A stretch of DNA of 64,000 nt, from contig PSLI01000001.1 of the NCBI GenBank assembly GCA_040289515.1, forward strand, positions 32,001-96,000, given 5' to 3'. Position 1 is the first letter of the stretch; each line of letters opens with the position of its first letter. The DNA comes from Candidatus Sysuimicrobiota bacterium. GTDB taxonomy: Bacteria; Sysuimicrobiota; Sysuimicrobiia; Sysuimicrobiales; Sysuimicrobiaceae. A program made the position numbers. Shown one piece after another: positions 27,501-39,500 of the stretch.

Positions 27501-30500
27501 CGTGGCGTTGTCCCTGCCCGTCCTCACAGTGGCGGCCACCGTCCTCAGCCCCGCGCACGGAGAGTGGGTGGAGTTTGTGCGGTTGGTGCTCCCCCGCTAC
27601 GTGCAGAACACCGTGTGGCTGCTGGGAGGGGTTGGCGTGGGGACCCTGGTGGTGGGGGTCACCGCCGCGTGGGTGGTGACCGCCTACCGGTTCCCCGGCC
27701 GGCGGCTGGCCCAGGTCGTTTTGCTGCTGCCCCTGGCGGTACCCGCGTACCTCGTGGCGTACGCGTACGCGGACCTGCTGCAGTACTCGGGGCCGGTGCA
27801 GTCCGCCCTGCGGGCGTGGCTGGGGTTGGCCCGAGGCTACCCGTTCCCGGAGATTCGCTCCCTGGGCGGGGCGGTGTTCGTGCTCACCTTTGTCCTGTAC
27901 CCCTACGTGTATCTTCTGACGCGGGCCGCGCTCTTGGAGCAGTCGCCCCTCACGTGGGAGGTAAGCCGGACCCTCGGGTATGGGGCGTGGGGGACGTTCT
28001 TGCGGGTGGCCCTGCCCGTGGCCCGACCGGGAATCGCGGCCGGGCTCGGCCTCGTGGGGATGGAGGTGCTGGCGGACTTCGGCACGGTAAAGTACTTCGA
28101 GCTGGACACCTTCGCTACCGGGGTGTACCTGGTGTGGTTCAGCTACGGGTCCGTGGCGGGAGCTGCCCGGCTGGCAGCTTGGCTGGTGGGGTTCGTGCTG
28201 GCCGTGGTGGCGGTGGAGCGCCTGTCGCGGGGCCGCCGCAGGTACCACAGGCCTCCAGGCCCGCTCCGCGAGGCGCGCCCCATGCACCTTTCCGGCGTGC
28301 AGGCAGCGGTGGCGCTGGTCGCCTGCCTTCTGCCGCCCGCGGTGGGCTTTGGGATCCCGGGGACCTACCTCGCGTGGATGGCATGGGTGGGGGGGGACCC
28401 CCTGTGGAGTAGGGCTTTCCTGGAGCTGGCGGGCAACACCTTCGCTCTGGCCGCCGCCACCGCGGCCGTGGCAGTGCTCCTGGCGGCGGTGCTGGCGTAC
28501 GGCGTACGCCTTGCCCCCAGCCCCGTGATGCATCTGGCCGCTCGGGTGGTCTCCCTGGGTTACGCGGTGCCAGGTGTGGTGGTGGCCGTTGGGATCCTGG
28601 TGCCCTTCGGCTGGCTCGCAAATCTGCTGGACCCGTACCTGCGGCGTTTGGGCCTTTCGGGCGCGGCCCTCACCGGCTCCACCTTCACCCTGGTCTACGC
28701 CTACCTGGTCCGGTTCCTCGCCGCAGCCCTGAGCACCGTGGAGGCGGGCCTGAGCCGCATCGGCCCCACCCTGGAGGGTGCCGCCAGGACCCTGGGCCAC
28801 GGGCCCTCAAGCGTCCTGGTGCGGGTTCACGCCCCCCTCATGCGGGGGAGCGTGTTCACGGCAGCCCTGTTGGTGTTCGTGGACGCCCTCAAGGAGCTGC
28901 CGGCCACCCTGGTCCTCAGACCCCTCAACTTCGACACCCTGGCGGTTCGGGTGTACCAGCTGGCCAGTGACGAGCGCTTGATGCAGGCGTCCACCGCGGG
29001 GCTGTGCATCGTAGCCGTGGGGCTGTTGCCGGTTCTGCTGCTGGACCGGGCGGTGCACCGCTCCCGGGTTGAAGCCCCCGTCGAGATTTCGGGCGCCCAT
29101 CGGGCGGAGGTCCGATTGACCCCACCTGTGCGCTTCGCCTAGCCTAACCCGATGGAGGATCCCGTGGTGGTGCGGGCAGCACAGACAGAACGGGCTAGCG
29201 AGCCCCGGGTACGCCTGCTGGGGGTGTCGAAGCACTTCGGGAGCGTGCAGGCCCTCCGGCAGCTGACGCTGTCCGTGTACCCGGGGGAGATCCTGGTTCT
29301 GCTGGGTCCCAGCGGCTGCGGGAAGACCACAGCCCTGAGAATCGTGGCGGGGCTAGAGCAGCCGGACGAGGGGTGGGTGGAGCTAGCGGGCCGGGTGGTG
29401 GCGGGCCCGCGGTGGGTACCCCCGGAGGCCCGGGGGGTGGGCATGGTGTTTCAGGAGCCCTCCCTGTTCCCGCACCTGACCGTGCTGGAAAACGTGGCCT
29501 TCGGGCTGCGCAACGCCTCCCGCGCGGAGAGGCTGCGAAGGGCTTCCGAGGTGCTGGAGCGGGTGGGCGCCGGGGACCTGGCAAGTCGGTTCCCCCACGA
29601 GCTGTCCGGGGGCGAGCAGCAGCGGGTGGCCCTGGCCAGGGCCCTGGCCCCCAGGCCCTCCGTGGTGCTTCTGGACGAGCCCCTCAGTAGCCTCGACCCG
29701 GAGTTGCGGCGCCGCATGCGGGAGGAGCTGCGACGGCTCCTTAAAACGGAGGGCAGTACCGCTATCCTGGTCACCCATGACCAGGAGGAGGCGTTCGCGG
29801 TGGCGGACCGCATCGGGGTGCTGAGCCGCGGGCGGCTGTGGCAGGTGGGGCCGCCGGAGGAAATTTACCACGCTCCTGCCTGCCGGTTCGTGGCGGACTT
29901 CGTGGGCGAGGCGGAGTTTTTACCTGGACAGGTACAGCGGCACGTGGCGCGCACCGAGCTGGGGGAGTTCCCCTGCAACGGCTTGCCGGACGGCACCCCC
30001 GTGGAGGTGATGGTGCGGCCCGCGGACTTGAGCCTGAAACCGAGTCCGGACGGGCCCGCGGTGGTGGTGGGGCGCCGGTTCCTGGGACCGGACACGGTGT
30101 ACGAGGTACGGTTGGCTTCGGGACGCGTGGTACGGTGTCGTTTCACCGGGGACGCAGGCCTCAGGCCGGGAACCCGGGTGCAGGTGTGGGCCACCTCACC
30201 CCGCACCGTGGTATTTCCCGCAGAGGATCCCAGCCCTCCTGCGTGATCGGCTTCAGGCCTCCTCGGTCACGAACACCACCCGCAGGATCTCCTCGATGGT
30301 GGTGATGCCCTCCAGCACCTTCCGGATTCCGTCCTCCCGCATGGTCCGGAAGCCCTCCTGTCGAGCCACCTCGCGGATCTCCGAGGCCGAGGCCCGCTGG
30401 ACCACCCGCTCCCGGATGCGATCGGTCACCCCCAACAGCTCGTACACCCCGGTGCGCCCCCTGTAGCCCGTCTGGCGGCAGGCATCGCAGCCCGCGCCCC

Positions 30501-36500: not shown

Positions 36501-39500
36501 CATCGCCGTCCCCCTGTCTCAGGTGGAGCTGTTTCCGCCCATGGTGGTGCAGATGGTACGGGTGGGGGAGGAGGCCGGGAATCTGGAGGAGATGCTGGCG
36601 AAGTTGGCGGACTTTTACGACACGGAGGTGGAAGCCGCGGTCCAGGCCCTGGCCAGCACCCTGGAGCCCGCCATGATCGTGTTCATGGGGTTCGTGGTGG
36701 GCGCCATGGTTATCTCCCTGTACCTACCCATTTTCCAGATGGCCGCGAAGGCGGGTTAAACACCCCGCGGGGTCGCACCACCACCGCGTCGCTGACGGGC
36801 CGCTCTCCTCCCTCGTCGGAGGGGCGGTTCGCTACAGTTCCCCCCACCACCAGAGTGGTGGAGCCGCCCCCGTCGAGGTTCACGGCCTCCCGCGCGCCCA
36901 GGGCGACCAGCTCCCGCGCCAGCTCCTCCAAGGTCATGCCGAGCCCGTGCTCGGGCCAGCGTCCATCCACCACCACCAGCAGCAGGCTGCCGTCCTGCCC
37001 GATGCCCACCGCGGTGCGGGGGTGGCGGCGGTTCCGAAAGCCGTCCGGGAAGCCTTCGTGGGCAGGACGGGCAACACCCCCCAACACGAGGCGCGGGCCG
37101 CCACACACCACGTGCCGCGCGGCCTGCCAGCGCGCATCCCCGGAGGCGGGATGCAAAGAGAGCAACACCCGTACAGGGTCGCCCGCCCGCAGACCCTGCA
37201 GCGCGGCCGTGGCAGTGCCGCTGGCCGACACCACGTAGCCATCCGGCGGGATCGCGGCACTGCCCCCGGAACGCGCTTCCCGCACCACTCCGCCCGCCAC
37301 CACCACCTCCAGCTCGGCGTCGCCCCGTGTGGCCTGCCCGAAGCGCGGGGTGTACAGGATCACTTCCCCGCTCCTGCGGACGCGGTTTACTCCCGAAAGG
37401 CGCACGGTGACGCCGGGCGCGACAAGCTTGCCCTGCCAGTCCAGGGCGTCCATCAGCACGAACCCTTCGCCCAACCCCAAACACGTGCGGCCGGGTACTG
37501 GCTCGCTCACCCACTCCCCATCCACCACCAGCCCTCCTGCGGGGTCGCCGTCCGGTGCGAAGAACCCGCCGTTGATGGCCGCCAGCGCCCCCACCCGCCG
37601 GCTTATCTCCGAGGTGCGCTCGCGTCCCGGTACCTGGTCCCGCGCCAGCACCGGCCGCACCTCAAACCGGTCCGGATCCACGCGCAGCGCGGCCACCCAC
37701 TGGGGCCCGGGAAGTCTTTCCAGGTCCCGCACCGTGGACAGCACCCAGGTGGGCAACCCTTCCTCCCGCAGGCGCGTGGCCAGCTGCTCTGCCTCCCGGC
37801 GGGTGGCAAAGGAGCCCACGCGCACCTTGTACAGCCCGTCCAGTTCGTCCACGGAGGCCACGAGCCCCGCATCCCGCATGCGGGATGCAAGCCGCTGCGC
37901 GTTGTCGGGGTTACCGAACGCGCCCACCTGCACCCGCCAGGTCGGCAGGGCCCGCAGGGCACCGCGCTTTTCTACCGCCAGCAGAAGTCCGCTCGATACA
38001 ACCTGCTGATACCGCAGCCGCACGCCTTCCTCCACGGCCCTCAGGTAGGCCCACAGCAGGCCCGCAGCCTCGCCGCGGGTGAGGGGTTCATCCCGGCGCA
38101 GGACCCCGGAGGAGTCCTGCAGGAGGGGTGGCTCGGTGCGGGTGGCCAGCACCAGTGCGGGGGTCACCGGACCGGGGGTATCCACGCGGGAGGCCAGCCA
38201 GTCCGCCTCCCACCGATACCCCAAAGCCCGCACCACCCAGTCCACGGCATCCTCCCGGCGCACGGCCTCCGCGGGCCGGAAACGCACTTGGTCCGATACG
38301 AGGCCGTAGCGACTGGCGGCCTCCACGAAGGGCGCTTCGGGGTGCGAGGCCGGAATGTCGCCGAACGTGGAGTGCTCGACCCGCCTCGTCGGGAGCCCCT
38401 TCGCCGTCACCAGCCACCGCAAAAAGCGTGCCCGCGAAAGAGTTGCGTGAGGCCGAAACAGGCCGTCGGGGTCGGTGTCCACCACCCGGCGCTCCAGCAG
38501 GGTCTGGATGGCAACGGCGGCCTGACTTGCAGCCCAATCGCCGGAGGCGGGCTGAGTCCGGGCCAAGCTCGCTATAGCAGCTACCCACAGGACAACGAGT
38601 GCCCTTCGCACGGGGGTTGGCTTCGCAACTTCGGGGCCAGCCTCCTGCGGAAGGGGACAGCCCACCAACGTGGAATGTTCCCACCGCGACGCTTGGGGGG
38701 GGAGGACCCGTGGTTCAGCTGCGGACGTCTTACGCGCAGGACCTGCGGCTGGTTTCGAGCTGGACGGGCTGGCTGGGCGTGGTGCTCCTGGGCGTGGGGC
38801 TGGCCCTACTGCCCCTGCTGGCACCCCGGTACGTGGTGTACGTAGCCACCATGGCCGCGGTGCACACGTTGGTGGCAGTGGGCCTGAACCTGTTGGTGGG
38901 CTACGCCGGCCAGATCTCCCTGGGCCACGCGGGCTTTTTTGCCGTGGGTGCGTACACCCACGGGCTGGTGCTGACCCGGCTGGGGTGGGGGTTCTGGCCG
39001 GCTTTCGCAGCCGCGGCCGTGGTGAGCCTCCTGTTCGGGTACGGGGTAGGGGTGCCGGCCCTTCGGCTTTCAGGTCCGTACCTGGCGGTGGCCACCATGG
39101 CCTTCGGCCTGGCCGTGCACCAGGTGCTGGTGAATTGGGAGGCCCTCTCGGGCGGGCGATCCGGACTGTTCCTGCCCGAGGTGCGGCTGCTGGGTGGGTC
39201 CCTGAAGGACGAGCGGATGCTGTACGGCGTCGTGGTGGCCGTGACCGTGTTGCTGGTGCTGGCCGCGGCGCGTCTGGTGCGCTCGTATGTGGGGAGGGCG
39301 TTCGTTGCCATCCGGGACAGCGACGTAGCCGCGGAGCTGTCGGGGGTCGACCTCACTCGTTACAAAACCCTGGCCTTCGCCCTGAGCGCCCTGTACACGG
39401 GAGTGGCGGGTGCCCTCCTGGGGCACGTGGTGGGCTTCCTGGAGCCGCAGCTGTTTACCCTGTTTGAGTCCGTGTACTTCCTCTCCTTGGTGGTGGTGGG

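Follow-up and report, generated by a model that had tools for sequence, protein, structure and literature searches.

Why would a bacterium encode a second DnaB-like protein beside the motor ATPases of its type IV pilus? In a 64,000-nucleotide stretch of DNA (the window) from the phylum CSP1-3/Sysuimicrobiota, the genome-wide survey's note had described a 520-amino-acid DnaB paralog with intact GAPRRGKT and DYLQ motifs, and had proposed that it handles DNA taken up by pili. The observation is partly confirmed and the interpretation is partly supported: the gene and its link to pili stand, and a role in DNA uptake is largely refuted.

A DnaB-derived ATPase beside pilus motor genes

The open reading frame with both motifs is present at 32807..34369 on the forward strand, and we will call its product P0001. 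It matches DnaB_C, but it scores 116.6 bits against TIGR00665, versus a cut-off of 385.25. As the survey had reported, the genome has a separate DnaB; it is encoded on contig C9 and scores above the cut-off. Because this canonical DnaB coexists with it, we rejected P0001 as the genome's replicative helicase. A separate above-cut-off DnaB is also present in 9 of the 10 genomes from outside the phylum that contain a family member.

Both the AlphaFold model of P0001 (mean pLDDT 80.9) and fold searches with it indicate a DnaB-like N-terminal domain and a RecA-fold domain; these are joined by a linker helix, and the RecA-fold domain has family-specific inserts. DnaB was the top-ranked fold with both Foldseek and VIA. 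P0001 shares the two-domain fold of DnaB (TIGR00665; PDB 6KZA, 4NMN, 7T20), with a VIA Z score of 24.8 and an rmsd of 3.2 over 260 residues to 6KZA, and a Z score of 13.6 for the N-terminal domain. But it is only 20-25% identical to DnaB, and it has an acidic pore loop, a helical insert (about residues 415-440), and a C-terminal extension. The branch-migration helicase RadA/Sms (PDB 8RXC) also forms a RecA-fold ring (Z = 20.3), but P0001 has a DnaB N-terminal domain where RadA has its zinc finger and Lon domain. P0001 does not match divDNAB (PF20307), another divergent DnaB-like ATPase; three of its relatives do, below the cut-off (15-19 vs. 26 bits). In the ESM Atlas, the whole protein leads to generic DnaB clusters and residues 360-511 lead mostly to unnamed viral clusters. 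Since the matches in viral contigs were few and weak (only three, at 24-26% identity), we saw no close phage source. A weak search for long fusions, which covered only 1389-3965 amino acids, found none, and there was no RNA holder among those listed.

In the archaellum, FlaH/ArlH has a role beside a pilus-type motor ATPase. FlaH/ArlH (PDB 4YDS, 4WIA) is also a RecA-fold ATPase (Z = 16), but it is a KaiC-like single domain, whereas P0001 has its origin in DnaB, which is by far the better-ranked match.

The gene for P0001 is followed on the same strand by pilT (34374..35528; above the cut-off of TIGR01420), which we will call PilT-A, and by the platform protein gene pilC (35542..36759; two T2SSF domains in Pfam, with all PilC/GspF models below their own cut-offs). 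The gaps are 4 bp and 13 bp, with no terminator-like matches in either, so the layout of the sequence suggests that the three genes are co-transcribed. PilT-A contains an arginine-rich insertion of 31-45 residues (about 35193-35300, forward strand) that is without counterpart in other PilT proteins. On the reverse strand, 30253..32607 encodes a PilB/GspE-type extension ATPase of 784 amino acids (TPR, MshEN, and T2SSE in Pfam; TIGR02533/TIGR02538), in which an N-terminal TPR arm (about residues 8-120) precedes a proline-rich linker, MshEN, and the T2SSE domain. The survey had described P0001 as facing this pilB; the two genes are actually divergent, back to back.

A predicted sigma-54-type -24/-12 promoter lies at 32746..32760 (forward strand), and a Shine-Dalgarno-like sequence at 32792..32798 (forward strand) precedes the ATG at 32807. 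The survey had claimed such a promoter for the genome family f1, and we found a -24/-12 site ahead of 10/10 f1 genes and 0/83 others (background expectation, 0.0025 per 330 nt). The genome contains rpoN, and a similar site precedes a pilin gene on contig C8.

ATP site and DNA-coupling residues

We aligned 135 homologs, 133 of which were gathered without a motif filter. The Walker A lysine and threonine, the catalytic glutamate, the Walker B aspartate, and the K/R finger are kept in 134-135 of them (the equivalents of K237, T238, E262, D343, K440, and R442 of E. coli DnaB). The Walker A loop (residues 208-215; 33428..33451, forward strand) has two family-specific arginines; R211, R212, and K214 are found in 134/135 homologs. 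The K-N-R finger (34160..34168, forward strand) contributes to the ATP site in trans, a role described for the DnaB finger in parts of PMC6391071, and its K452 and R454 (K440 and R442 in E. coli) are found in 135/135.

The survey's word "intact" fits this ATP site only; it does not fit the positions through which hydrolysis is coupled to DNA. R232, R357, Q384, R403, E404, and Q410 of DnaB are all replaced in P0001. Q384 and Q410 are glutamine in 13/13 canonical sequences; in the family, they are P/S/V/A and Y, respectively, in 135/135. As for the contacts with single-stranded DNA (roles of R387, R403, E404, and G406 as given in the portions of PMC6391071 and PMC13315258 that we used), R403 is kept in 0/135, E404 is replaced by glycine, R387 is lysine or arginine, and G406 is kept. 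One basic DNA-contact residue survives in the family. N386 is replaced by aspartate in 131/135. The H3-H4 pore loop (residues 366-405; 33902..34021, forward strand) is lengthened and acidic in the alignment, with the model partly of low confidence here; its charge is -3 to -10 in the family versus -2 to 0 in 12 canonical DnaBs.

Could P0001 still be a nucleic-acid translocase? It might use K369 to grip DNA or RNA, as RadA does, while the acidic loop acts as an autoinhibitory gate, and it might work with pili in some way other than transformation. K369, E370, and G400 in the H3 loop correspond to the RadA DNA contacts K216, E217, and G222 (PMC11612176), and RadA, which has no R403, still binds DNA via K216. 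Position 369 is lysine or arginine and G400 is kept in 135/135 homologs, and the full ATP site and the DnaB N-terminal domain are retained; also, 21/93 rows, all from the Wallbacteria/Riflebacteria/Muiribacteriota clade, have lysine at the R403 position. On the other hand, Q384 and Q410 correspond to H213 and H228 of RadA and to H465 and Q494 of T7, and both are replaced, N386 has become aspartate, and the loop is acidic. Nor is there a recurrent replication or recombination gene among the identified neighbors. We consider a translocase unlikely.

Distribution and DNA uptake

Full-length copies are found in 30/41 and 58/73 genomes of the phylum, at 47-88% identity. As the survey had claimed, the gene is single-copy (one of the 58 copies is split across two contigs), and its description as a conserved DnaB paralog that is linked to pili and under purifying selection is supported. 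Adjacency to pilB, which the survey had reported for all of its best loci, holds for 19/28 fetched loci; all nine loci from family f2 lack pilus genes. In an EF-G tree, the f4 genomes without the gene are nested among carriers. The idea that close homologs come only from this lineage did not survive: there were 242 matches in genome_contigs, and the best 80 of these include Wallbacteria, Riflebacteria, Caldisericota, Acidobacteriota, Eisenbacteria, Chloroflexota, Mcinerneyibacteriota, and Muiribacteriota (family tree built with FastTree). A short relative (P0177) is found at two near-identical loci that adjoin a dcw cluster, an uninformative context.

Is P0001 the helicase for pilus-imported DNA that the survey proposed? 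Its link to pili fits, as do ComEC in 45/58 carriers and the pair ComEC and DprA encoded by the window's genome; one DnaB-type helicase, RadA, takes part in transformation (according to the available text of PMC5512693). But this genome has its own RadA-type gene, and 13/58 carriers lack ComEC; in five of them, a retest at E ≤ 0.1 found ComEC in none. ComEC is absent from all 18 genomes of family f4, of which 9 keep the ATPase gene intact. Conversely, G017 contains ComEC and lacks the ATPase gene. G027 and G030 have neither ComEC nor DprA and keep the gene with a dN/dS of 0.07 (0.14 for G019 and G014). DprA likewise does not track the ATPase gene, another difference from RadA/Sms. Given the carriers without ComEC and the replaced coupling residues, the DNA-uptake reading is unsupported, and we consider it very improbable.

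A co-occurring pilus module and a proposed role

Within the phylum, three features of the pilus system co-occur with the gene. The PilB TPR arm is found in 58/58 carriers and 2/15 non-carriers (by a TPR profile built from carrier loci, with candidates incompletely scored in six non-carriers). A roadblock protein (PF03259) is found in 57/58 carriers and 4/15 non-carriers; a second, divergent roadblock usually adjoins the first (hhalign probability 91.5). In G000, the two are encoded on contig C13 at 66066-66419 and 58870-59241. PilT-A, a class assigned by hand at 67% identity or above, is found in 54/58 carriers and 2/15 non-carriers, and all 26 PilT-A rows have the arginine-rich insertion, with positive net charge in 25. 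The distribution of the TPR arm has 2 mismatches with that of the gene, versus 18 for ComEC. There were only about 2-4 independent losses, and kin are not independent; because of linkage, co-loss counts are inflated outside f2. In f2, where the gene is unlinked, all 16 carriers still have the TPR arm and the roadblock protein. Seven non-carrier loci retain pilB and pilC, and their PilB lacks the TPR arm; in G017, pilC and both PilB ATPases remain, and roadblock, TPR, the ATPase gene, and PilT-A are all missing. PilT itself is present in all 10 outside genomes and is uninformative, so we rejected a link to PilT in general.

The ATPase might instead be a general-purpose enzyme that is unrelated to pilus mechanics, whose place in the operon reflects shared regulation and whose loss came with that of its neighbors. 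This would fit the varied housekeeping genes around it in other phyla, its unlinked position in 9/9 f2 loci, and the small number of independent losses. But the gene is never kept where the TPR arm is missing (0/13), and loci that have lost it retain their sigma and MerR genes; this is also why we rejected a link to either of them. Also, in a second, distant clade, TPR-roadblock genes again lie upstream of the family gene (5 loci confirmed by Pfam) and MshEN genes lie downstream of it (3 loci confirmed). The Myxococcus mglC-sgmX locus may include efp-accB-accC, as this clade does, a parallel on which we do not rely. We consider a general-purpose role quite unlikely.

Roadblock, a TPR adaptor, and PilB also come together in the MglA-MglB-SgmX-PilB pathway of Myxococcus (PMC11580455 and PMC4316618, in part). 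In our phylum, PilB carries the TPR as a fused domain, and the accompanying NTPase, a putative binding partner, resembles DnaB. The Roadblock/LC7 component of the MglA/MglB polarity module is present, and its small GTPase MglA was found in 0/73 genomes of the phylum (a control search was positive in 2/5 outside genomes). As of 2014, no orphan roadblock protein had been characterized, according to the passages available from PMC4316618.

We propose, at about an even chance, that P0001 is a ring ATPase of DnaB descent that no longer takes part in DNA replication and instead works within a module that regulates the type IVa pilus motor. This module would consist of the ATPase, the PilB-fused TPR arm, the orphan MglB-like roadblock protein, and PilT with its basic insertion. 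The ATPase would form a ring, hydrolyze ATP independently of DNA, and act on either the PilB TPR arm or, via its acidic loop, the basic loop of PilT. It may be tuned by the roadblock protein, and the output would be the timing or place of pilus extension and retraction. In one specific and rather unlikely version, the ring would be a roadblock-regulated nucleotide switch that, without MglA, licenses PilB via the TPR arm and/or grips the PilT loop in its acidic pore; a helicase would then have become a protein-handling regulator of pilus extension and retraction. A complex prediction for the ATPase, the TPR arm, and a roadblock dimer scored 0.01 and counts neither way.

Several further observations count against a motor regulator. 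Of 45 loci that we classed as outside the phylum, only 2 have a PilB/PilT-type ATPase in the fetched flanks, and just 4 of the 10 outside genomes with the family yielded a roadblock protein. G081, G082, and G083 encode MglA as well as a family member, and G079 and G086 probably do too. And the K-E-G residues are RadA-like.

Our literature searches, which covered papers available without subscription, found no description of this ATPase family, and the main text of the CSP1-3 paper (PMC11604079) gave no match for pili or helicase. At minimum, this is a multi-phylum family that lacks annotation and is mislabeled in databases as "replicative DNA helicase." The module gives three soluble candidate partners for the ATPase. 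If our proposal is correct, a DnaB ring has shifted from DNA to motility control and is a candidate partner for orphan roadblock proteins.

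A DnaB relative beside the pilus motor genes

P0001, the 520-amino-acid DnaB paralogue encoded at 32807-34369 (plus strand), matches DnaB_C (E = 6e-25) but reaches only 117 bits against TIGR00665, whose cut-off is 385. All coordinates here are those of the window. Its AlphaFold model has a pLDDT of 80.9, and DnaB was the top match in both fold searches. As the genome-wide survey's note had held, the true DnaB of this genome is separate: it is in a 794-amino-acid frame on another contig (C9), which we take to hold an intein. (The replicative DnaB frames, at G000:C9:652-2985 in this genome, are about 780-1200 amino acids in most relatives and probably contain inteins; those of G017, G025, and G040 are about 450-460 amino acids.) P0001 is not a replicative DnaB, but rather a protein of the DnaB/SF4 kind that has probably changed its job. 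Literature searches showed no description of its family among the records listed.

P0001, the adjoining pilT (34374-35528, plus), and then pilC (35542-36759, plus) share an orientation, and pilB (30253-32607, minus; TPR, MshEN, and T2SSE domains) is divergent from all three. The survey's note had P0001 facing a MshEN-containing PilB; the domain is there, but the two genes point apart. Its sigma-54 promoter in family f1 holds up: a site lies upstream of 10/10 f1 genes and 0/83 other genes, a pilin gene is also preceded by a sigma-54-like site, and rpoN is present. On the flanks, an ABC transporter operon (26359-30246, plus; resembling the Fe(III) type) is convergent with pilB, and a gene for an SLH-SPOR-phosphodiester glycosidase (36710-38824, minus; confined to loci of genus g1 in the data examined) is convergent with pilC, whose end it overlaps. 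In f5 loci (L023, L030, L078, L084, L089, and others), genes for MerR and DUF6812 lie between the paralogue and the second pilB.

Full-length copies are present in 58 of 73 genomes of the phylum, each at least 85% complete; named relatives assign the lineage to CSP1-3/Sysuimicrobiota. (These counts include two unpublished genomes, the non-carrier G023 and the carrier G053; no conclusion depends on these two alone.) Within the phylum, FastTree places f1, f2, and f5 each in a clade and splits the f4 sequences; dN/dS was 0.06-0.19 in 10/10 pairs. The paralogue adjoins pilB in 19 of the 28 loci that we fetched (the note had 19 of 19 best loci); in all nine f2 loci the gene lies amid unrelated genes. 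That P0001 is hitch-hiking in the pilus locus seems quite unlikely to us.

DNA uptake and the residues of the ATPase

P0001 had been proposed as a helicase for DNA taken up by pili. The distribution of ComEC, which is present in 50 of the 73 genomes, argues against this: its presence and that of the paralogue mismatch in 18 of the 73, and ComEC is found in 0/18 f4 genomes, nine of which keep the paralogue without internal stops. A retest for ComEC at E ≤ 0.1 in five ComEC-negative carriers found none. G027 and G030 are missing DprA besides ComEC, and G017 has ComEC and is missing the paralogue. We consider an uptake helicase very improbable. (DprA is kept in 11 of the 18 f4 genomes, though ComEC is missing family-wide.)

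We counted residues in 135 homologues, of which 133 were collected by similarity searching with no filter on motifs; a separate set of 93 sequences was motif-filtered and de-duplicated from 107. Because the equivalents of E. coli K237, T238 (as T or S), E262, D343, K440, and R442 are conserved in 134-135 of the 135, the family likely forms a ring with composite ATP sites, as judged from sequence. But the equivalent of R403 is missing from all 135, that of Q384 is P, S, V, or A, and that of Q410 is Y. So the paralogue described as intact is intact at the ATP site and altered at these three positions. Also, the R357 equivalent is gone, and the N386 equivalent is D in 131/135. The DNA contacts named for DnaB include R403, E404, G406, and R387 (PMC6391071, PMC13315258), and Q410 was proposed as a coupling switch from simulation (PMC9020082). 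H213 and H228 of RadA, equivalent to T7 H465 and Q494, are assigned to coupling (PMC11612176); by our own alignment, they would correspond to Q384 and Q410. RadA is also missing R403, and its K216, E217, and G222 are matched by K369, E370, and G400 of the P0001 family, which speaks against DNA binding having been lost outright. We think it unlikely that P0001 is a retained nucleic-acid translocase.

Compared with canonical DnaBs, the H3-H4 loop has about 9 extra residues. Its net charge is -3 to -10, versus -2 to 0 across 12 canonical DnaBs, a comparison from which one intein-containing sequence was excluded. An offshoot of the family (P0154, P0157, P0177, and P0245; 395-399 amino acids) is without the N-terminal domain, and its Walker A motif, catalytic Glu, and K/R finger are degenerate. 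The helical insert specific to the family is still present (hhalign probability 100), and the offshoot is likely a pseudo-ATPase.

A module that comes and goes with the gene

The gene tracks three other features: the TPR arm of PilB (58/58 carriers versus 2/15 non-carriers), a roadblock protein (57/58 versus 4/15), and PilT-A, a PilT marked by an Arg-rich insertion (54/58 versus 2/15). Five of the non-carriers look like assembly gaps: the contig stops where the gene would start (G058) or within pilB (G071), the f2 neighbor gene is missing as well (G059 and G062), or the pilC orthologue is missing (G023). In the other ten, TPR, roadblock, and PilT-A are all missing. Seven non-carrier loci retain pilC and a TPR-less pilB. 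G017 retains both PilBs and pilC as well as sigma and MerR; it is missing exactly the module, whose parts have separate positions in the locus. In an EF-G tree, the f4 non-carriers fall among carriers, G013 lies inside f1, and G017 is unplaceable. Since the losses perhaps represent just 2-4 independent events, we give no P value for the co-occurrence. MglA was found in 0/73 genomes; the same query finds matches in 2/5 genomes from other phyla.

The PilT-A insertion (35193-35300) has conserved ends and a variable, basic middle. Its position is the one at which PilB has its tetracysteine zinc module. A broken pilT-like fragment lies at a contig end (G000:C28:7012-7794), and this genome's second PilT looks to be either degraded or misassembled.

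Relatives in other phyla and a proposed role

Close homologues had been thought to be named only from this lineage, but among the best 80 of 242 matches, the family reaches eight other named groups. By hand, we classed 45 of these 80 loci as outside the phylum. A PilB/PilT-type ATPase is encoded in 2 of the 45 (fetched flanks, some of them short). In one clade (7 loci, including a Mcinerneyibacteriota record), the gene lies between accB and accC. Upstream of it are TPR-roadblock genes, confirmed by Pfam in 5 loci; downstream are TPR genes and MshEN genes, the latter confirmed in 3 loci. In other outside clades, it lies amid housekeeping genes. We checked ten outside genomes for a separate DnaB: nine encode a canonical one, and in the remaining genome the DnaB scores 295 bits. 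Because pilus ATPases are that rare in outside loci, roadblock was found in 4/10 outside genomes, and MglA is present alongside the family in several, the module is firm for CSP1-3/Sysuimicrobiota only.

Five genomes of a Wallbacteria clade have two family copies, and members from Wallbacteria and Riflebacteria have long N-terminal extensions (L061, L062, L068, L069, L071, L072, L076, L087, L088, L098, L100, and L103). In Acidobacteriota, Eisenbacteria, and Chloroflexota records (L091, L099, L106, L111, L112, L117, L118, and L121), the gene lies in a shared island of shuffled gene order, together with genes for two dynamin-like GTPases, two MutS-V proteins, CrcB, and DUF190; there it looks to have spread horizontally.

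In Myxococcus, the TPR protein SgmX, recruited by MglA, is reported to bring PilB to the pole (PMC11580455). A 2014 paper (PMC4316618) describes roadblock proteins as predicted regulators of NTPases and the orphan members as uncharacterized. Unlike Myxococcus, CSP1-3/Sysuimicrobiota have TPR-PilB and roadblock but no MglA, and the NTPase whose presence and absence follow theirs is the P0001-type ATPase. For this reason, we favor a pilus-motor regulator over a translocase, a hitch-hiker, or an uptake helicase, and give it about an even chance; its physical interactions are what we infer. Going by charge, we hypothesize that the acidic H3-H4 loop may match the basic insertion of PilT-A.
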